From: Candidatus Woesearchaeota archaeon
GTDB taxonomy: Archaea; Nanobdellota; Nanobdellia; Woesearchaeales; GW2011-AR4
DNA length: 64,000 bases
NCBI GenBank assembly: GCA_016180235.1
Contig: JACPBQ010000003.1
Coordinates: forward strand, 14,958 to 78,957
Reading direction: 5' to 3'
The notes under the pieces were generated by a model. That model searched no databases. It was not told the DNA's origin and worked only from the letters and a program-made list of their open reading frames with translations. Numbering within the stretch: the first letter of the stretch is position 1; each line of letters starts with the position of its first letter. This document shows, in pieces, positions 1,189 to 64,000 of the stretch. A program made the position numbers and the translations under genes.

Positions 1189-2514
1189 TTAATTACCTTC
1201 TACATAGATTTCTTCGGTTAAAATGCCTCTTTTGTTAGGTTCCAGTTTTGCTATGACTTTGCCATAAGGGTTTACTATCTGGGTAATGCCCGTATTTGTT
1301 GCTCTTAAAACATACTTGCCGTTTTCCGCTGCATTTAGCCTTGAATACAAGCTCGAAAGATATAAGCCCCTTGAATTTTTTAATCTCTGGTTGTTTGCCA
1401 AGGATATCAGGAATTTGGCGCCATTTTGGGAATATTCTTTGCTTATGTGCCCTTGTGTCTCTTCATAGCACATCGTAATGCCGAATTTAATGTTGCCTAC
1501 CTCGGAAATTCCAATTTTTTCTCCCGGCAAGGTCCATTTCTCATATGGAAGCGGCTTTACTGATGCATAATCCCAAAAAAATGTCCCATTCGGCAAGAAC
1601 AGCTTAGCAACGTTATTTTTGAGCCTTCTGTCACCATAGTACCCGTCATGCCATTTTAATGTGCCTAAAACAAGGTAAGAGCCTGATTCTTTTGCTAATT
1701 CAGATATTTTTGATGATAACTCTTCACTTTTTTCTATGTCAGCAGGGATAGAGTATTCCGGCCATATTATTATTGCAGGATTCTCCTTGGCTGCTTCTAA
1801 TGTCAGCTCATGGTAAGCATCAAATATTGTCCCATTGGCATTGCTTATCCTCCAGTCCCAGCTTTCGTTAAAGTTTCCCTGTATCAAAGCCACTTTAAAT
1901 GGCTCTCCCTTAGGCTGGGAAAAACTGCTGTATGCAAAAGAATACAGCAGCACTAAAGCCAAAATGGACCCGAATGCAATCAATCTTTTGTCCTTTTTAA
2001 TCAAATAAAAGCATATCATTGAATTAATTAATACTATAAGGAATGTTATTCCATGGCTGCCTATGGACCATATCAATGGGGCAAGCATCGGCTGGAACAT
2101 GGCAAGATTGGCCCAATAGCTGTCCAGGAACGAGAATGAATAGGCAAACATTAAGAGGAGCCATAAAGCTGGCACTGCAAAGATATTCCAGGGGTATTTT
2201 ATTTTTTTGATTGACAGTCTTGACAGTATAAGGAACAAGAACAGGAAAGAGGCTATAAGCAATACTCCAAAGAAGTAGGTCTTGTAATCATAGAACCTCA
2301 CCCAGTGGAATATTGCTGCAGGGCATACGGCGGCAAAGATTATCGAATAGGATGTTGCTGCCATTTTTTTTGAACTATATATCAGGAATAATATCGGCAC
2401 CAAAGCAGCCCATATAAGGAAGTTGAGGTAGAAAATCGAGATTATGAACAAAAAAACTGACAAAACCAGCAGGGGAATTCCCTTCTTTACCATAAAAAAA
2501 GAATTTGCAGCCAT
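1189..2514 (-). CDS. lnt: apolipoprotein N-acyltransferase-like protein
   Basis: N-terminal TM bundle plus nitrilase-fold motifs VALIQGN, IIWPE, MCYE, RATNTGITQIVNPYG. Confidence 0.85.
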   Translation of the reverse strand: MAANSFFMVKKGIPLLVLSVFLFIISIFYLNFLIWAALVPILFLIYSSKKMAATSYSIIFAAVCPAAIFHWVRFYDYKTYFFGVLLIASFLFLFLILSRLSIKKIKYPWNIFAVPALWLLLMFAYSFSFLDSYWANLAMFQPMLAPLIWSIGSHGITFLIVLINSMICFYLIKKDKRLIAFGSILALVLLYSFAYSSFSQPKGEPFKVALIQGNFNESWDWRISNANGTIFDAYHELTLEAAKENPAIIIWPEYSIPADIEKSEELSSKISELAKESGSYLVLGTLKWHDGYYGDRRLKNNVAKLFLPNGTFFWDYASVKPLPYEKWTLPGEKIGISEVGNIKFGITMCYEETQGHISKEYSQNGAKFLISLANNQRLKNSRGLYLSSLYSRLNAAENGKYVLRATNTGITQIVNPYGKVIAKLEPNKRGILTEEIYVEGN

Positions 2515-2584
2515 AATTTAAATAGTTTCCCAAAAAGCTTTATTGAATGGCAAAGATTAAATAAGCCAATAAAATTGCATTGTC

Positions 2585-3583
2585 ATGGAAATGAAAGGCT
2601 ATAAGGATTATATCCTAAACAAGTCTGTTTCCGTTGTGCTGACTGCCCTGATATTGCTTTTGATAAGCCTGAATGATAACCTGCAGGCACAATGGAGATT
2701 GTTAATAATAACTATAATAGTTTTCGGTCATGGTCATTTTATCACAAGCTACATTTATCAGGTAAGGAGCTTGAGGAATAAGCTGCCAAGGAAAAGAAAC
2801 ATCTTGGCTTTTGTTTTTTTGCTTGCTTCGCTGTCGATTGCACTGCTTTATGCCCGGTTCGGCCTTGGCTATAACGACCTTGCATTGGTATTCATAGGGG
2901 CTTATTTTCTGATTCATAATACCCTGAACGAGAGGACGATGTTTGTTAGCTGCTCGAAAAAAGAGAAGAACAGTTATCTCGTGGTATCTATTGTGATATT
3001 CTTGTTCTTATGGGTCTACTTTGGGTCTGTCGGGCATGACAGTTTTTCGTTTGCCCTGTCCGAAAGCATAGTCACTTTTGATAACATCAACAATATTATC
3101 CCTATTGATCTTTATGAAAATGTTGTCCCGGATTTTGTCTCCATGTTGCCCTTGTTTTTGGGAGTGCTTTTGCTGGCATATTTCACCCTAAAGGAATTTA
3201 GGAATAGAAAAAGGATTTTGGCCATGTACTCCATTGCAGCTGTTTTTATTGTAATGGGAGCATTTAGCATGGCCGGGAATTTTCTTTATTTGATGGCTTT
3301 CATAATCATATACCATTATATCACCTGGTTCATCTATTTTTTAAAAAAGACCAGCCATGGGGGAGAGTTCTTGTATAGGACTAAGCCATATCTGGGAATG
3401 AATATTTTGGTATATTGTGCATTGATTGCAGTTTTTTATTTCGGAAATGTGTCCACGAGTGGGATAATATCGGGAATTTATTTCGTGTTCTTTTCATTGA
3501 ATTATTTTGTGTTATGGGTATTTTTGCACATTACAAGCACCCTGATTAACGAGGAGCAGATTGCAAAAATCATGAGGTTTTGA
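2585..3583 (+). CDS. polytopic membrane protein with four His motifs (paralog 1)
   Basis: very hydrophobic; GHGHF, IHNTLNE, YHYITWF, LHITSTLINE. Confidence 0.8.
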   Translation: MEMKGYKDYILNKSVSVVLTALILLLISLNDNLQAQWRLLIITIIVFGHGHFITSYIYQVRSLRNKLPRKRNILAFVFLLASLSIALLYARFGLGYNDLALVFIGAYFLIHNTLNERTMFVSCSKKEKNSYLVVSIVIFLFLWVYFGSVGHDSFSFALSESIVTFDNINNIIPIDLYENVVPDFVSMLPLFLGVLLLAYFTLKEFRNRKRILAMYSIAAVFIVMGAFSMAGNFLYLMAFIIIYHYITWFIYFLKKTSHGGEFLYRTKPYLGMNILVYCALIAVFYFGNVSTSGIISGIYFVFFSLNYFVLWVFLHITSTLINEEQIAKIMRF

Positions 3584-56951: not shown

Positions 56952-57529
56952 TTTTTATTGTTCTTTTTAACTTGCAGCTCTTTTGGCTCTTCCTTCAGCT
57001 GCGTTGCAATTACCAGGCTGAATAATGAAGCGATAAACATGACCAAAAACAGGGTCTTAAACCCATACAGGCTTGCCAGGAAGCTTCCGATTAAGGCTGC
57101 TATGCCCTGGACTATGAACCATGTGCTTTCCCATGCAATCCACTGGAAAGCCAGCTTTTTCCTGTCAACATAGTTTGCGTAAAACGAATAAGTTGCAGGA
57201 GATATCACAACAACAGACAATCCTAAAAAGACCTGCAGGATGAACATTTGAGGCACATTTGAGACAAAATAATATCCTAAAAATCCAAGGCTTCTAAGGA
57301 AATATCCTGCAACCAAGACATTCTTGTCTTTGCTTAATTTATCCTGCAGCTTGCCCATGAAAAGCATGCCGATTCCTGAAACAATCATGAAAATAGCCCA
57401 TGCTGCTCCGGCTTCCAGTATATCCCCTCCTATTTTTTGCACAAAAACAGCATAGATAGGCCCCAACATGCCGAAGGCTAATGCATAAATCCCATCCGCA
57501 ACCAGAAACAATTTTAGCTGCTTGTGCAT
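56948..57529 (-). CDS. half-size (6 TM) MFS-like transporter
   Basis: GKLQDK motif-A-like sequence; six hydrophobic helices. Confidence 0.8.
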   Translation of the reverse strand: MHKQLKLFLVADGIYALAFGMLGPIYAVFVQKIGGDILEAGAAWAIFMIVSGIGMLFMGKLQDKLSKDKNVLVAGYFLRSLGFLGYYFVSNVPQMFILQVFLGLSVVVISPATYSFYANYVDRKKLAFQWIAWESTWFIVQGIAALIGSFLASLYGFKTLFLVMFIASLFSLVIATQLKEEPKELQVKKNNKK

Positions 57530-57530
57530 T

Positions 57531-58067
57531 TTAGCTGATTGTAACCTTATTCATAACATCCCCATCCCTTAATTTCCCTGCAACATCCATGCCTTCTATT
57601 ACTTTGCCGAAAACAGCATAGTTTCCATCAAGGAAATGGGAATCTTCCAGGGTAATGTAAAACTGGGATGATGCGCTGTTTGGGTCAGAAGCCCTGGCCA
57701 TCGCAACTGCTCCCTTAACATGAGTAAGTGCAGGATTTATCTCCAAGAGTATGTTTTTGCCAGAGCCTCCAGTGCCATCGCCGTTTGGATCTCCGCCCTG
57801 TATGACAAAACCTGGCTCATACCTGTGGAAAGTCAAGCCGTCATAGAATCCCGAGCTTGCAAGCTCAATGAAGTTTTTTGCCGTTACCGGCGCTTTATCC
57901 TGGTACAATTCAAATTTTATTGTTCCCTTGTCCGTATCTATAGTTGCTATTTTGTTTTTCATTTTTACATCTTCTCCTGTTACAACTGGGTCTCTGGCCG
58001 TATTGCTGCCAGAGCATCCTGCAATAACGAATAAAAACACAACCAGCCATATTATCTGCATTCTCAT
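57531..58067 (-). CDS. cyclophilin-type PPIase with a lipoprotein signal
   Basis: IAGC lipobox; [32 protein letters not shown]. Confidence 0.93.
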
Positions 58068-58075
58068 TTTTTCCT

Positions 58076-58366
58076 TTAAATCGCCCTCGGCCCTTTAAAA
58101 TAGCCGTCTTTTTTATTTTGTGTCAATGACAATGCTTCTTCTTGGCTAAGGCATTCTTTTGCTTTATCCTCTCTTAACACGTTCTTTAATTCAACCGGCT
58201 GCAGGCTTACATCTATGCCTTTAGTATCAACTTCATCCAGTTTTGAGAAAGTATCCAGGATTTCCTTCAGCTCTTTGACGAACTGCTTCTTCTCTTTTTC
58301 AGAAATTTTCAGCCTGGCAACATCAGCAACGTGCTCTATAAGCTTCTCATCAACCTTCGCTTTCAT
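58076..58366 (-). CDS. gatC: Asp/Glu-tRNA amidotransferase subunit C
   Basis: [19 protein letters not shown]. Confidence 0.92.
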
Positions 58367-58410
58367 AAGAGAAATTGTTTTGGAATCGGGGTTTAAATAG
58401 TTTTTGTGTC

Positions 58411-60240
58411 TTATTCCACCGTAACACTCTTGCTTAAATTCCTCGGCTTGTCCGGGTCCAATTTCCTGTCAGTAGCAGCATAATATGCCAATAGCTGCAA
58501 TGGCACAACAGCTAAAATTGAGCTTAAAATATAAAGTGTATTTGGAATGTACAGGACATGGTCAGCCAGCTTTTTAATTTCTGAATCTCCGTCGCTTGCT
58601 ATTGCTATTATGATGCCTCCTCTTGCCTTGACTTCCTGAATATTGCCCAAAACTTTTTTGTATGTGTAGATGTCTTTGGTTGCCAAAACAACAACCGGCA
58701 TGTTTTTGTCTATCAAGGCTATTGGGCCATGCTTCATCTCAGCTGCCGGATATCCTTCTGCATGTATGTAAGAAACTTCTTTCAATTTTAAAGCCCCTTC
58801 CAGGGCAATAGGAAAATTAATGCCTCTTCCCAAAAACAGGGCATTATGCTTGTCTTTGTAGATGTTTGCTATTTTCCTTATCTCTTTTTCCTTGCTCAGC
58901 AAAGACTCCATTTCCAATGGTAATTTTCTTAATTTTCCCATCAGATCCTTTATTGTTTCTTTGTTTAATGAATCTCTTATACTGCTCATGTATAATGTAA
59001 ACAAATACAGGACAACCAGCTGTGTTGTAAATGCCTTTGTGGATGCAACCCCGATTTCAGGCCCGGCGAAAGTATACAGGACAGAATCAGACTCCCGGTC
59101 AATGGAGCTTCCCTTGGCATTGACTATTGAAAGTATTTTGGCTCCTTTCTTCTTTGCCTCCCTTATCGCAGCCAAAGTGTCTGCCGTCTCTCCTGACTGG
59201 GAAATCGCTATAACCAAAGTATTGCCGTTTATGATCGGGTTCCTGTACCTGAATTCAGAGGCATATTCAACCTCTACGGGTAATTTAGCCAATTCTTCAA
59301 GCATAAATTCTCCGGCTAATCCGGCATGCCATGAAGTGCCGCAGGCAACTATTATTATCCTGCTTATATTTTTTAATTCCCTCTCATTGAAATTTAGTTC
59401 ATTGGCTAAATTAATATTGCCATTTTCTATCCTTCCGTTCAAGGTTTCAGTTATAGCGCGAGGCTGCTCATGTATCTCTTTCAGCATGAAATGCTCATAG
59501 CCCGCTTTTTCAGCTAATTCAGAATCCCAGTCAATTTCGTTAATATTTTTTTTAATTATTTCCCCATCAATGTTTTTTATTTGAACATTATTTTTTGTCA
59601 ATATTGCCATTTCATTATTGTCAAGATAAATGACTTTGTTTGTATGCTTTAATATCGCAGCCACATCAGAGGCAATGAAGTTCTCATTTTTTCCAATTCC
59701 AACAATTAATGGGCTCTCATTCCTTGCTGCTATCAAAATTTCTGGGCTATCTGCGCAAATAACTCCCAAAGCATAGCTTCCTTCTATTTGTTTTAAAGCA
59801 GCGCTTGTTGCCTCCTCTATATCACCCTTAAAATTATCTTCTATCAGATGCGCAATAACCTCTGTATCAGTCAAGGAATTGAATTTGTGGCCTTTGCTAA
59901 TCAGCATTTCCTTTAACTCAGAAAAATTCTCAATAATGCCGTTATGCACGATGCTTATTTTGCTTTTGCAGTCAAAATGAGGATGGGCATTTTCTTTAGT
60001 TGGTGACCCATGAGTGCTCCATCTGCAGTGCGCCAAACCGATATTCCCTTTTAATTCAGAAAAATTAACTTTTTTATCCACTTCTTCGATTTTTCCCGCA
60101 TCTTTCTTAATAACCAATTTATTGCTATTTATGCAAACCATCCCAACTGAGTCGTATCCTCTATATTCCAATCGTTTTACGCCGTCTAGTAATTTATTCG
60201 CCACATTATTATCCGACACAATACCCACAATACCGCACAC
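58411..60240 (-). CDS. glmS: glutamine--fructose-6-phosphate aminotransferase
   Basis: GTG start; [51 protein letters not shown]. Confidence 0.97.
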   Translation of the reverse strand: MCGIVGIVSDNNVANKLLDGVKRLEYRGYDSVGMVCINSNKLVIKKDAGKIEEVDKKVNFSELKGNIGLAHCRWSTHGSPTKENAHPHFDCKSKISIVHNGIIENFSELKEMLISKGHKFNSLTDTEVIAHLIEDNFKGDIEEATSAALKQIEGSYALGVICADSPEILIAARNESPLIVGIGKNENFIASDVAAILKHTNKVIYLDNNEMAILTKNNVQIKNIDGEIIKKNINEIDWDSELAEKAGYEHFMLKEIHEQPRAITETLNGRIENGNINLANELNFNERELKNISRIIIVACGTSWHAGLAGEFMLEELAKLPVEVEYASEFRYRNPIINGNTLVIAISQSGETADTLAAIREAKKKGAKILSIVNAKGSSIDRESDSVLYTFAGPEIGVASTKAFTTQLVVLYLFTLYMSSIRDSLNKETIKDLMGKLRKLPLEMESLLSKEKEIRKIANIYKDKHNALFLGRGINFPIALEGALKLKEVSYIHAEGYPAAEMKHGPIALIDKNMPVVVLATKDIYTYKKVLGNIQEVKARGGIIIAIASDGDSEIKKLADHVLYIPNTLYILSSILAVVPLQLLAYYAATDRKLDPDKPRNLSKSVTVE

Positions 60241-60241
60241 T

Positions 60242-61333
60242 TTATTTACCTCTATACTTGTTTGTCAAGATTTCTAGTTTTTTCTTTTTTTCAGGATGTA
60301 AAAATCCTATTTTTTTGGCAAAAAGCAAGATATTATCTTTTCCACTAATTGAAAAATAATGCATTGTAGTTCTATCTTTGCTTTTGTGAACGAGAATTTG
60401 ATTTGGTCTTATGCCGACTTTTTCGACTGCATTCCTCAAATCATTAACCAAATCCCTATATTTTTGAGCTATAACAATCATATTCTTTTTAGGATAAATG
60501 TAACCTTCATCATCATATAAGGCTTGCAGGAACTTACAAATAAGATTCTCTTCTAATCCATATACAAAGCTAGGTATTCTTTTTTTGTCATTGTTAATTT
60601 CATACTCCAGAATATCATATAATATTCGCCCTATGCTTGTTTGCAGCCAAAGTTCATCCCCGTGACCGATTCTTTTCCTAAAGTATATTTTATTGCCACC
60701 AAAAACAGATTTAACATCATTTCTAAAAGCATTTAATAGAATTTCTTCATTATTCACATAAAATGGCCTATATTTACTTTCATTTTTGACTAAATGAATT
60801 CCACCATCTCCAATTATGTGGCCTAAAATTCTCATTAGCTCTTCCGATAGTTTAAATCTTTTTACCTCAATTGAGAAAGAATTCTTTGTCTTGAGTTGCC
60901 TAATATTATTTGTTAAGTATGATTCTTCGATTGATAATGCTCTAAATAATTTAAATAAAGTATCCAAATTAGCCCAATAATTCTTGCTTTTTAGGATTCT
61001 TTGCAAAGTTTGATAAGACGCTCCAATCTTTTTGCTCAATTCAACTTTGCCTGACTTTATTCTGGAACTTAGCAATTTTTGGAGATTTTCATCTATAATA
61101 GCATAATAATCCTCATTTTTGATAAAATTAAAAATTTTCATATTGCTACTTTGCATTTGCTGGAAATTTTTAACGAATGGAGAATTAGCGATATTATTAG
61201 AAGATTCAAAAACTTTGTCATTTGAAATAAAGTCATAAGAAGAATCATAACCCCTGTACTCGAGCTTTTTCAGCCCTTCAAACAGTATAGGCGCTGCATT
61301 TTTTTCCCCGACATAACCGATTATTCCGCACAT
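60242..61333 (-). mobile_element. LAGLIDADG (intein DOD-type) homing endonuclease gene fused to the first 31 codons of glmS
   Basis: N-terminus MCGIIG...LEYRGYDS; [19 protein letters not shown]; motifs [10 protein letters not shown] and [10 protein letters not shown]; FAKKIGF..PEKKKKL; no Hint/splicing motifs seen. Confidence 0.88.
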
Positions 61334-61447
61334 TTTTAGCAGGGATTAAAACTCCGGTCAGTATATAAAGATTATGAATCAATGATCGAGAAAGATAAGA
61401 GCAAAATAGCAATAGATATTTAAAAAACTGTACTCAACATCTGTTAA

Positions 61448-61938
61448 ATGCTGAAAAAAGAAATCAGGGTAATTGGGATTGATGATGCCCCGCATAAATT
61501 CAGGGCAAAAGGCAGTATTCTGGTTGTAGGCACAATTTTTAGGGGAGGCAATTTTCTTGATGGTATTTTGTCAACAAAAGCATCCATTGACGGCAACAAC
61601 GCAACTTCTAAAATAACAGAAATGATCAATAAATCAAAATTCAAGCCGCAGTTAAGGTGCATTTTTCTTGACGGCATAGCTGTTGGGGGCTTTAACATAA
61701 TTGATATAGTTGAATTGAACAAAAAAACAAAAATCCCGGTTATAGTGATAATGAGGAAAAAGCCGGTCCTGTGATTCCTGCTGGCAGGATTTACGTGCAG
61801 ATATCCGGCATTAGCCTGGAAAAGGCAAAAGAGATGCTGAAGATAGCGTGCACGCGAAGCACAATACCTGAAGCAGTGAGGATGTCCCATATTATAGCCT
61901 CAGGGATAGTTGAAGGGCAAAGCAGGGGAAAAGCTTAA
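61448..61938 (+). pseudogene. DUF99 / endonuclease dU family gene, frameshifted by an apparent internal deletion
   Basis: IGIDD, DG...GGFNIID in the first frame; C-terminus AGPVIPAGRIYVQ...IPEAVRMSHIIASG in another frame ending at 61938. Confidence 0.8.
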
Positions 61939-62010
61939 AAATAAGTTTAATAATCAGAAATCTTGATATAATATCTTAGCAGATAAAAACAGGCAATAGC
62001 GGTGATTTTT

Positions 62011-62241
62011 ATGGGAAGGAAAAGCAAGAAGAAAAAAGCAAAGAAAATAAGCATGAAGAAGGAGAAATACCTTAAGTTCAGGAAAGAGAAGAATACTGCT
62101 ATTGATATAACGATGCCTGAGCTCACTCCGGAGCAGAATAAGCAAAAGCAGGAAGACGAGATGAAGATTGGCAGGTTCCTGAGATTCAACAAGAATCCCC
62201 CTCAGAAAGAGCTGAAGGAGAAGATGCTTAAGAGAAGATAA
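62011..62241 (+). CDS. small basic hypothetical protein
   Basis: SD GGTGA before ATG 62011; Lys-rich. Confidence 0.6.
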   Translation: MGRKSKKKKAKKISMKKEKYLKFRKEKNTAIDITMPELTPEQNKQKQEDEMKIGRFLRFNKNPPQKELKEKMLKRR

Positions 62242-62266
62242 AGGGCAGATATAAAAGCATTCTAAA

Positions 62267-62447
62267 ATGTCGGAATTTTCCACTAGTTAATAACTAGTGG
62301 CAGAAAAGCCAAATACATTGCGAAAATTCCGAGCATGCTCAAAAACCACTCAATGTTTATATACATAACCCAATCATTCCACCCATCTGTGATGGTTTGA
62401 ACTTGTTCAAACCTACAAACGCTAGTGAGTATGGGTGGTTTTTGACA
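62267..62447. repeat. two head-to-head palindromic elements
   Basis: ATGTC-GGAATTTTC...GAAAATTCC-GAGCAT and ATGCTC-AAAAACCAC...GTGGTTTTT-GACA; internal palindromes CCACTAGTTA/TAACTAGTGG and GGTTTGAAC/GTTCAAACC. Confidence 0.85.
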
Positions 62448-62455
62448 GAAACTAA

Positions 62456-64000
62456 TCACCCATAATAACTCCCTTTCTCTTTCTGCTCCCTGTCCAGTTT
62501 GGAATCTAATTTATTGACTCTTGGCATCAAACTTTCCTTATCCCTCCTTAATGTAATATTCAATTTCTTCAGGAAAATGTTCATGCCTTCCTCCATCATA
62601 AAAGGCCCTTTTACAATTCCTTCTTTTGCAGGGATGCCGTCAAAAACCATTAATTTGTCTGATAAATAATCAAGAAATAACAGGTCATGGTCCACTATAA
62701 GTGCTGATGAGCCTTTTTGTTCCATGAAATCCCTTATTACTTTTGAAACTATGAGCCTTTGCTCAACATCAAGGTATGCAGAAGGCTCGTCAAGCAGATA
62801 CAGGTCAGCTTCCCTGCCCAAACAATGAGCGACCATCACTCTCTGCAGCTCTCCCCCGGACAGCTCATTCAGTTTTTTCAAAAGTAAAGGGCTGATATTT
62901 AATGGATTTATTATTTGGTTTGCATAGCCCTTTATTGCATCCTGTAAAAAAATCATCACCAATTCATCATTGGCTTCCAGATACTGCGGCTTGTAGCTTA
63001 CTGTTACCTTCTCATTTAGCTTGCCTGAATCATTTTCTATCTCTCCCGCCAGTATCTTTACAAAAGTGGTCTTTCCGATGCCGTTTTCACCCAGGATCCC
63101 TATAACTTCCCCTTTGCCAATGGCCCCTTTCTCGGTTTTCAGCGAAAAATTGCCCAATGTTTTGGAGATGTTCTCCCAGTTGACCAAAGGCACATCTTTC
63201 TTCTTCACAAAAGGCTTCCTCTCCTCAAACTTGACCTGCTTATCCCTGAATCTTATGTTTTCTTCCTTCATGTAGCCGCTCAAGTAAACATTGATTGCGT
63301 TCTTTGTCGGCTTTACCCCGGAGACAGAGCCGTAGACATCCTCGCTTCCGTACATTATATGCGCCAAATCGGAAATATAGTCGAAAATTATGAGATCGTG
63401 CTCAACAGCCATGACCGCAGTTTTCTCATCGGCCAGATTCCTTATGAACTTGCTCACATTTATCCTTTGCTTTATGTCCAGATATGAGCTTGGCTCGTCG
63501 AAAATATGCAAGTTTGCTTTTTTCAGGACTGCAGCGGCTATTGCCACTCTCTGCAGCTCTCCTCCGGAAATTTCATTGATATTATTGTCCATTATACTTT
63601 CTATTTCCAGCTCTTTTGCTATTTCATTCAGCTTATTTTCCTCATCGATTTTTTTTAATAAATCTTTAACTTTCCCTTTCTGCATCCTTGGTATTAATTC
63701 AATGTTCTGGGGCTTGTAGCTTACCTTAATCTCATTTTTCCGGACTTTCTCAAAAAACAATTGCATTTCAGTTCCCTTGAAGAAATTAATTATTTGCTCA
63801 TAACTTGCTTCCTTGCCAATATTATCAAAATTCGGCTTTAAAATGCCTGCTAATATCTGTATTGCAGTGGACTTTCCGATGCCGTTTACTCCCAAAATGC
63901 CGACAACTCTGCCAAATAGAGGAGTGGGCAAATTAAACAATGCAAACTTGTTTTCCCCGTACCTATGGATGGGAGTTTTGTCCAGCACCTCTGGGAGATT
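62456..64000 (-). CDS. ABCE1/RLI ribosome recycling ATPase (5' end outside the window)
   Basis: HRYGEN.F.L..LP, two ABC domains (NGIGKS/T, SGGELQRV, DEPS.YLD), RVNKLDS. Confidence 0.95.
   Translation of the reverse strand, partial: NLPEVLDKTPIHRYGENKFALFNLPTPLFGRVVGILGVNGIGKSTAIQILAGILKPNFDNIGKEASYEQIINFFKGTEMQLFFEKVRKNEIKVSYKPQNIELIPRMQKGKVKDLLKKIDEENKLNEIAKELEIESIMDNNINEISGGELQRVAIAAAVLKKANLHIFDEPSSYLDIKQRINVSKFIRNLADEKTAVMAVEHDLIIFDYISDLAHIMYGSEDVYGSVSGVKPTKNAINVYLSGYMKEENIRFRDKQVKFEERKPFVKKKDVPLVNWENISKTLGNFSLKTEKGAIGKGEVIGILGENGIGKTTFVKILAGEIENDSGKLNEKVTVSYKPQYLEANDELVMIFLQDAIKGYANQIINPLNISPLLLKKLNELSGGELQRVMVAHCLGREADLYLLDEPSAYLDVEQRLIVSKVIRDFMEQKGSSALIVDHDLLFLDYLSDKLMVFDGIPAKEGIVKGPFMMEEGMNIFLKKLNITLRRDKESLMPRVNKLDSKLDREQKEKGSYYG

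Follow-up and report, generated by a model that had tools for sequence, protein, structure and literature searches.

Architecture of the glmS locus

The window, a 64,000-nucleotide stretch of a Candidatus Woesearchaeota archaeon genome (assembly GCA_016180235.1, contig JACPBQ010000003.1), carries on its minus strand a complete glmS gene and, directly upstream of it, an open reading frame (ORF) that joins a short GlmS N-terminus to a LAGLIDADG homing endonuclease. An earlier note, made from the sequence alone, had read this arrangement as an endonuclease that invades glmS, takes over its start and supplies a replacement 5' end in place of splicing. The working glmS gene was found to be a chimera with a foreign 5' end, and the endonuclease gene probably travels together with that end. 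The source genome measures 1.04 Mb in nine contigs, is 80.75% complete and holds one glmS and one endonuclease copy.

The fused ORF (60242-61333, minus strand) encodes 363 amino acids (aa), and the NCBIfam glmS profile TIGR01135 matches its residues 2-32 with an E-value of 4.6e-11. GC content falls from 0.44 in the GlmS-like remnant (61241-61333) to 0.27-0.29 in the linker and endonuclease, with the drop sitting at 61240, compared with 0.39 in glmS and 0.389 in the whole window. The ORF ends in ...KYRGK and the stop codon TAA (60242-60244), followed by one base and by the GTG start of glmS (60238-60240) in another frame. The final codons of the endonuclease contain a Shine-Dalgarno-like AGAGGT (60248-60253), 8-13 nt before the GTG, and the working GlmS of 609 aa matches TIGR01135 with 841 bits over profile positions 1-607 of 607. 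The observations of the earlier note on this layout thus hold: the ORF opens with a 31-codon GlmS N-terminus, switches to AT-rich sequence with a helix-turn-helix (HTH, a weak match) and two LAGLIDADG motifs, and is followed one nucleotide past its stop by a complete GTG-initiated glmS with an embedded ribosome-binding motif. The features of the locus are the following.

61362-61369, minus strand: TATA-like box (TTTATATA), read from the sequence, some 32 nt ahead of the fused ORF's ATG; presumably the native promoter of glmS, from which endonuclease and glmS would now be expressed jointly
61241-61333, minus strand: displaced native glmS 5' end, codons 1-31, fused in frame to the endonuclease and providing its start codon
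61142-61240, minus strand: AT-rich linker of 33 codons (GC 0.27), part of the element, aligning with the conserved linker of the family
60242-61141, minus strand: endonuclease core from the internal Met65 to the stop, delimited by Pfam LAGLIDADG_3, conserved columns and AlphaFold2
about 60908-61090, minus strand: HTH region within the endonuclease core
60797-60826, minus strand: LAGLIDADG motif 1, within the endonuclease core
60500-60532, minus strand: LAGLIDADG motif 2, within the endonuclease core
60241-60253, minus strand: coupling junction of AGAGGT, stop TAA and one spacer base (60241), read from the sequence
60007-60240, minus strand: element-borne foreign glmS 5' end with GTG start, codons 1 to about 78, recognized by identity drop, breakpoint and approximately unbiased (AU) test
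60007-60030, minus strand: variant motif HCRWSTHG, residues 71-78 of the working GlmS, presumed immune target site
58411-60006, minus strand: vertically inherited glmS body, codons about 79-609, from the tree of residues 82-609

The working glmS gene is a chimera

The GlmS of the window was compared with that of its same-genus relative G001. Identity amounts to 65, 48, and 50% in residues 1-31, 32-60, and 61-80, respectively, and to 82, 74, 88, and 88% in the later segments, while no such N-terminal drop appears between G001 and its other relatives in the group here called clade A. At the nucleotide level, a breakpoint falls at codons 70-82 (chi-square 39.7, with none of 2000 codon permutations as extreme), with identities of 0.57-0.59 to its left and 0.77 to its right; four control pairs reached chi-square values of 1.7-6.1 in the same test. 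The tree of residues 82-609 places the window as sister to G001 (Shimodaira-Hasegawa-like approximate likelihood ratio test, SH-aLRT, 94) inside clade A (100). For residues 1-78, a placement with clade A was rejected by the AU test (p = 3.4e-7), as was a placement with G001 (p = 6.8e-8).

The upstream remnant shows the opposite affinity. Its 31 codons agree with locus L011 at 28 of 31 aa. Over the eight clade-A relatives compared, the match is 22-28 of 31 aa (65-74 of 93 nt), whereas the working glmS start of the window itself reaches just 19 of 31 aa. The working glmS gene is accordingly a chimera in which codons 1 to about 78 are foreign and the body is vertical, and the upstream remnant is of the native type. 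Trees of both 5' copies against the gene body had been put forward in the earlier note as a check, with a vertically inherited downstream N-terminus as an outcome that would speak against it; the downstream N-terminus is not the vertically inherited one, and the pattern is repeated in loci L066 and L070/L084.

On the tree of the glmS body, the occupied state needs three changes, i.e., at least three independent occupations within the window's family. The body of L066 is sister to that of L018, and those of L070 and L084 group as sister of clade g11, while the working 5' ends of L066, L070, and L084 form one clade together with that of L014 (98/96). Placing the 5' ends according to the bodies was rejected by the AU test for L066 with L018 (p = 1.8e-6) and for L070/L084 with g11 (p = 0.007). 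The remnants again follow the bodies: that of L066 shares 33 of 39 residues with L012 and 31 of 39 with L018 versus 8 of 39 with its own working copy, and that of L070 shares 34 of 40 with L020 versus 6 of 40 with its own working copy.

Several observations on individual loci stand beside these results. L014 (genome G013; glmS at 1501-3330 of the locus) is an empty allele in which the first 75 or so residues are foreign to the body; its relative scan gives deficits of -0.33 to -0.08 in the five 15-residue windows that reach residue 75, and values near 0 thereafter. Its 5' residues belong to the clade of element-borne ends named above, and its motif is RWATCG. L014 may be the footprint of a lost cassette, or of a conversion of the site without transfer of the cassette. 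In the metagenome contig L070, the foreign tract of the working glmS seems to reach about residue 200 in the relative scan, far beyond the tract of the window, which points to co-conversion tracts of variable length. In the lineage of L044, L067, and L071, remnant and working 5' end hardly differ across about 35 residues, and the synonymous divergence (dS) of the remnant is 0.58-0.69, below the 1.0-1.5 of the endonuclease core. This pattern would fit gene conversion between the copies, or repeated renewal of the left arm. Ratios of nonsynonymous to synonymous divergence (dN/dS) of 0.20-0.35 for the remnant, available for one lineage, were set aside because of the shortness of the remnant and possible gene conversion. 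The 160-nt regions preceding glmS in the window's genome and in G001 are not convincingly alignable and the synteny differs, so that promoter conservation provides evidence neither way.

Recurrence of the element and empty alleles

The fused ORF belongs to a well-delimited family. A search of clustered proteins returned 46 clusters at E <= 1.1e-66 with the next score at 2.6e-9, from where the weaker matches are GlmS proteins that align to the first 31 residues only. A GlmS-type start (MCG...) was found in 27 of the 45 other clusters, and one more begins with MCDI. An exhaustive phmmer search gave 13 clusters (50% identity) at E < 1e-30. Among 400 other genomes sampled from the phylum, five hold a close homologue (E <= 6e-80; next best 2e-26), in each case directly upstream of glmS. 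Further loci came from scans of species-representative genomes and of metagenome contigs and, after the removal of five duplicates, 30 distinct loci were obtained. Host labels in the record titles comprise Woesearchaeota, Nanoarchaeota, one Aenigmatarchaeota bin, and several Methanosarcinales bins.

In all 29 judgeable loci, a full glmS starts at -16 to +5 nt from the endonuclease stop, and start and stop overlap in several of them. The contig of L083 is cut and was not judgeable, and L069 shows only the first 34 glmS residues. The search for other occupied alleles that the earlier note had suggested thus returned the same arrangement throughout. A strict 5-mer Shine-Dalgarno-like motif occurs 9-14 nt before the glmS start in 15 of 28 occupied loci.

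Empty alleles were sought as well, and were found at 19 of 19 relative glmS loci (18 genomes of the window's family and G033 of a neighboring family), where the endonuclease gave nothing below E 0.3 and the flanking 1.5 kb contained no second piece of the glmS 5' end. The same-genus relative G001, whose GlmS is 81% identical to that of the window, is among the empty ones. Together with the repeated occupations within the family and the foreign 5' ends, this amounts to a presence/absence polymorphism with horizontal spread. The genome G012 (locus L009), which is among both the eight clade-A relatives and the 19 empty-allele loci, is unpublished. Further unpublished genomes are G420, next to G012 in the phylum sample of 401 genomes, and G504, G471, G467, G595, and G569, next to G012 in a 401-genome sample of the order that was used for the motif counts below; no conclusion rests solely on them.

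Insertion site and target motif

The length of the remnant varies among loci. The longest remnants run through a conserved GlmS motif and end after RWA; L073, for example, reads ...IGIAHTRWA and continues with LERFNKS...MNILN. In seven of seven loci with long remnants (five lineages), the remnant ends with TGG GCT (RWA) and then diverges. The ancestral junction thus lies after the RWA of the glutaminase motif GH(T/C)RWATHG, at about codon 75 in the numbering of the window, and it coincides with the nucleotide breakpoint of the chimera. The remnant of the window has therefore lost codons 32-75, and the linker at 61142-61240 occupies the place that native codons 32 to about 75 take in relatives with long remnants. 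The fusion at codon 31 described in the earlier note is therefore what the window contains, but not the ancestral junction.

Internal deletions differ among the 14 loci with a recognizable remnant, yet in all 14 the reading frame runs on into the endonuclease. An MCGI-type start is kept in 18 of 28 judgeable loci; in the other ten, which have no remnant, the ORF begins close to the conserved MNILN. Taking over the start of glmS, as the earlier note had proposed, is consequently seen in the larger part of the family and is not universal.

RWATHG was present in the working copy of none of 28 occupied loci, in a count that ignores the kinship among loci. The states found were RWSTHG (14 loci), RWATTG (six), RWATCG (three), RWATNG (two), and RWSTTG, RWATMG, and RWGTHG (one each). 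Among the 401 genomes of the order, the exact RWATHG coding pattern occurs in 181, in none of the five endonuclease-bearing genomes among them, and a reversed control pattern occurs in three genomes of the same sample. The predicted cleavage target is the DNA encoding GH(T/C)RWATHG, and the variant motif in the working copies may mark an immune target site in occupied alleles.

The same motif is also used by inteins. A search for longer GlmS proteins listed 78 long relatives, most of them with Intein_splicing and LAGLIDADG_3 domains and many with HTH_3. In six of six GlmS inteins read, the intein is inserted at ...GH/C...HN/SRWATHG (slashes marking its ends), three codons from the junction of the cassette. 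The endonuclease regions of these inteins are 22-28% identical to that of the window, which is no closer than other inteins. GlmS inteins (P0264-P0337) are widespread in archaea and bacteria, with labels including Nitrososphaerota, Micrarchaeota, Persephonella, Omnitrophica, and Elusimicrobia, and in many of them HTH_3 precedes the LAGLIDADG domain.

The endonuclease

Pfam LAGLIDADG_3 matches residues 266-343 of the fused ORF with an E-value of 1.3e-10, while the HTH_3 match is weak (E 0.0083, below the Pfam cut-off). Both LAGLIDADG motifs are present, each with its conserved acidic residue, as in the two-motif monomeric class. An alignment of 32 family sequences contains 35 invariant columns, including D176, G177, and G178, and D274, D275, and G277. 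The AlphaFold2 model (predicted local distance difference test, pLDDT, 85.7; predicted template modeling score, pTM, 0.80) has the pseudo-dimeric alpha-beta-beta-alpha-beta-beta-alpha fold of LAGLIDADG enzymes; residues 1-65 of the fused ORF are poorly predicted, with pLDDT below 50 for residues 25-52. In a Foldseek comparison with solved structures, the best matches were the endonuclease domains of TliVMA, PI-TkoII, PI-PfuI, and PI-SceI as well as I-DmoI, with E-values of 1.6e-8 to 1e-6 and template modeling (TM) scores on the target of 0.72-0.76 for I-DmoI. NCBIfam matches to the endonuclease fall on the endonuclease parts of intein-bearing proteins. Across five pairs of relatives, dN/dS of the endonuclease ranged from 0.07 to 0.21. 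The endonuclease is intact and under purifying selection.

The protein looks mosaic. Residues 306-363 (60242-60415) are 77-89% identical to the P0004/P0012 lineage, which has hosts in the window's family as well; across the first 200 residues, identity to it is just 38-62%. In the endonuclease tree, the window protein falls in the other major clade. P0127-P0142 form a separate free-standing family of about 380 aa that is 30-35% identical to the endonuclease core, with an N-terminal HTH, a double LAGLIDADG, a C-terminal winged-helix-like tail, and no host-gene remnant. Proteins of this build (13 sequences read) follow after a gap in the phmmer scores and were judged to be a different family.

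Alternative explanations

The genome is metagenome-derived and incomplete, which would leave room for an assembly that fused the glmS alleles of two strains. Against this, both junctions are covered by per-run contigs of X1, X2 (2724 nt) and X3 (2045 nt), which show no difference to the window over 59879-61600, and the same architecture occurs in 29 other distinct loci from other, unrelated assemblies. As these three runs and a fourth come from one groundwater study that is possibly the source of this DNA, the contigs are not independent support. Misassembly is unlikely, a fusion of two strains' alleles in particular is extremely improbable, and the contigs agree with contiguous junctions, the point that the earlier note had named as a possible weakness. 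An intervening sequence spliced at the RNA level, in which a group I, group II, or archaeal bulge-helix-bulge (BHB) intron removes the endonuclease together with the second 5' end, would agree with an upstream fragment that is in frame and ends at a conserved block repeated downstream. An Rfam scan of 57500-62500 gave only one chance-level match (E 0.8), however, and co-folding of the two hypothetical splice junctions as a BHB was no better than shuffles (z = +0.55). Moreover, all 29 judgeable loci have a complete downstream glmS that opens with a start of its own, and 10 of 28 offer no upstream fragment as splice partner, which leaves an intron very improbable. At the protein level, Pfam at E <= 1 gave four families on the fused ORF with no Hint or intein family among them, although the same library detects Intein_splicing in the GlmS intein protein P0265 (E 3.3e-24) as a positive control. 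Intein continuity is absent at the locus, as a stop codon ends the ORF, no terminal HN followed by Cys, Ser, or Thr is present, and the frame of glmS differs. A word-based search of longer proteins with endonuclease residues 66-363 gave no match, which is weak evidence given the method. The earlier note's statement that neither Hint motifs nor an evident intron are present agrees with all of these scans, and the profile search it had called for found LAGLIDADG_3 and no Hint domain.

A derivation from an intein deserves more weight. In this explanation, a GlmS intein at the same motif lost its Hint domains, a second 5' end rescued the gene, and the locus is now a frozen relic. The nearby insertion point of GlmS inteins, their shared HTH_3 and LAGLIDADG_3 make-up, the intein endonucleases among the nearest solved folds, and the NCBIfam matches to intein-bearing proteins all point in this direction. 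The missing splicing signal despite a working positive control and the low identity to GlmS-intein endonuclease regions point away from it, and the 15 matches of at least 860 aa among the best 150 of 5196 (50%-identity clusters) are, by their listing data, unlike GlmS inteins in length and match position. A frozen relic would also leave unexplained both the repeated invasions with foreign 5' ends within one family and the purifying selection on the endonuclease. We consider it unlikely, while an intein as the remote origin is compatible with a mobile cassette. Purifying selection would equally suit a domesticated regulator resembling WhiA, with LAGLIDADG and HTH parts, co-transcribed with glmS and inherited vertically with many losses, the mosaicism of glmS being unrelated. 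Such a regulator would account for the constant association with glmS over deep divergence and for the HTH region, and WhiA is among the fold matches (ranks 44-49). To our knowledge, WhiA is without the catalytic acidic LAGLIDADG positions; those of both motifs are invariant in the 32 family sequences. The endonuclease is also sporadic, being absent from 19 of 19 family relatives and present in five of the 400 other genomes sampled from the phylum. In three loci, foreign 5' end and element go exactly together, and the low GC content is typical of a foreign element. A regulatory role is thus quite improbable.

Proposed mechanism

The likely explanation, in our view, is a cassette of linker, endonuclease gene, and glmS codons 1 to about 75, which moves as a unit and whose gene encodes a free-standing LAGLIDADG homing endonuclease with two motifs. 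This account builds on what was computed, namely the architecture and its recurrence, the intactness and purifying selection of the endonuclease, the lack of splicing elements, the chimerism of glmS, and the polymorphism of empty and occupied alleles. From these we infer cleavage, its exact target, immunity, and the mode of expression of both genes, i.e., the endonuclease from the glmS promoter and glmS by re-initiation.

The endonuclease would cut empty glmS alleles at the DNA for the conserved glutaminase motif, and the break would be repaired off an occupied allele, with the displaced glmS 5' fragment upstream of the endonuclease as the left homology arm and the glmS sequence downstream of the cut as the right one. 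Repair would copy the linker, the endonuclease gene, and the donor's glmS codons 1 to about 75 into the recipient, whose own first codons would stay upstream, in frame with the endonuclease, and lend it the glmS promoter and ATG. The glmS gene with its donor-derived 5' end would restart on the same RNA, a few bases from the endonuclease stop, via the embedded Shine-Dalgarno motif. With a complete gene and a start of its own, GlmS would therefore keep the free N-terminal Cys that it needs, without RNA or protein splicing. The donor-derived 5' end carries the variant motif (RWS-THG in the window), which probably shields occupied alleles from cutting. In the window, the upstream fragment has since shrunk to codons 1-31. 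The core of the earlier note, an invasion without splicing that brings a replacement 5' end, is thus supported by the foreign 5' end, the native type of the remnant, the uniformly empty relatives, and the glmS gene adjoining the endonuclease in every judgeable locus.

A number of points weigh against this explanation or limit it. The 31-codon remnant alone cannot separate a native 5' end from one carried over from a similar earlier host. Protein-level maximum chi-square breakpoints were tried as a locator and rejected, since control pairs also break at about residue 290 and the test is confounded by domains that differ in rate. The right limit of the foreign tract is not sharp, because the relative scan shows a strong deficit in residues 1-45, a weak one in 46-75, and none past residue 76. 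The nearest relatives of the endonuclease are only about 50-57% identical to that of the window, so that the invasion seen in the window is not recent and present activity of the enzyme is putative. Divergence of the endonuclease across loci (44-53%) is of the same order as that of glmS (38-69%), and would also fit long vertical co-inheritance in some lineages. The absence of the target state from all 28 occupied loci is not phylogenetically independent and is a lead, not a statistical proof. The strict Shine-Dalgarno motif was seen in just over half of the loci, as counted above, and the ten loci without a remnant mean that the endonuclease can use a start of its own and that takeover is not obligatory.

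Neighboring genes

Downstream of the locus, the neighbors are ordinary and comprise gatC, a cyclophilin gene, a major facilitator superfamily (MFS) fragment, and a gatA-type amidase gene. Upstream lie an Endo_dU gene and a gene for an ATP-binding cassette (ABC) ATPase. The Endo_dU gene (PF01949; 61448-61938, plus strand) is split: an ORF at 61448-61774 matches profile positions 1-103 of 182, and a second ORF at 61771-61938 overlaps its end in another frame. The split may reflect a frameshift, a pseudogene, or a sequencing error.

Comparison with known systems

The closest parallels are mobile ORFs (mORFs) of fungal mitochondria, where hybrids of Allomyces macrogynus atp6 and of Glomus atp6, atp9, cox2, and nad3 carry a foreign piece of the host gene (excerpts of PMC3630166); Tremella fuciformis introns that have an N-terminal duplication are a related case (excerpts of PMC7315562). 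As far as the excerpts of PMC3630166 describe them, mORFs share with the window element a LAGLIDADG (or GIY-YIG) ORF in a protein gene without reliance on splicing, a duplicated host-gene piece of which the inserted copy is foreign and the displaced native copy adjacent and clustering with close relatives, and an ORF that is often in phase with the host gene, the hybrid gene resulting from horizontal transfer. The same combination of an endonuclease ORF with a foreign inserted and a native displaced piece was found in the window, in L066, and in L070. Unlike the window element, the fungal ones are organellar and replace the 3' (C-terminal) end, with the host gene reading into the insert (same excerpts). 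The window element sits in an archaeal chromosome, substitutes the 5' end, and would use the host start for itself and restart glmS past its own stop. It would thus be a 5'-end-replacing mirror image, in archaea, of the fungal mitochondrial mORFs.

GlmS (GF6P) inteins share with it the host gene, the conserved motif, the endonuclease class, and the layout of HTH and double LAGLIDADG. Unlike the window element, they are in frame on both sides, with Hint blocks and a C-terminal HN, and are protein-spliced. The element is closed by a stop codon, so that two proteins result, and its endonuclease has the low identity to theirs given above. The seg and mob genes of phage T4 encode free-standing homing endonucleases with intronless homing. 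Similar to the window element, they lie outside introns and inteins. They spread by double-strand-break repair with co-conversion of flanks, as is proposed for the window element, and their donor is protected by target differences, with which the motif states of occupied glmS loci would be consistent; they sit between genes and are without a duplicate of the target gene. The window element lies inside a coding region and would bring a substitute gene end, used both as a homology arm and as a repair patch.

In 'fractured genes', a free-standing endonuclease gene likewise interrupts an essential gene in a prokaryote-type genome, between gene halves that are rejoined through trans-splicing by split inteins (excerpts of PMC2677866). 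Unlike these, the window element is without intein parts, and its host gene is already complete as DNA. In the usual account, a homing endonuclease inside conserved coding sequence depends on a self-splicing intron or intein (excerpts of PMC3943268). A full-text literature search found no description of such an endonuclease in glmS or in DPANN archaea, in agreement with the earlier note, which knew of none for archaeal glmS; the sole paper found to name glmS together with DPANN concerns a viral GlmS gene.

Implications

Provided that its enzymes are active, the family would supply new monomeric LAGLIDADG nucleases with targets that could be mapped from the predictions. A concrete target is offered in the RWATHG codons of glmS, with predicted immunity substitutions A75S and H77 to T, N, C, or M. 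For annotation, a 'GlmS N-terminal fragment' fused to a LAGLIDADG protein is no pseudogene artefact. The family also offers an example from nature in which an intein and a free-standing endonuclease share one site.

We lean slightly towards a wider reading, in which DPANN archaea have a third route, besides introns and inteins, by which a homing endonuclease can settle in the most conserved portion of an essential gene: a cassette that brings an immune 5' copy, uses the displaced 5' end as promoter, start, and left arm, and couples both genes in translation. Such a cassette would compete with GlmS inteins for the site, and its homing, as well as its loss by recombination of the two 5' copies, would shuffle glmS 5' ends between lineages, with the empty allele of G013 as a possible footprint. 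The family would also explain mosaic glmS genes in DPANN phylogenies and would show, through a replacement gene end, a DNA-level alternative to splicing in a cellular, non-organellar genome.

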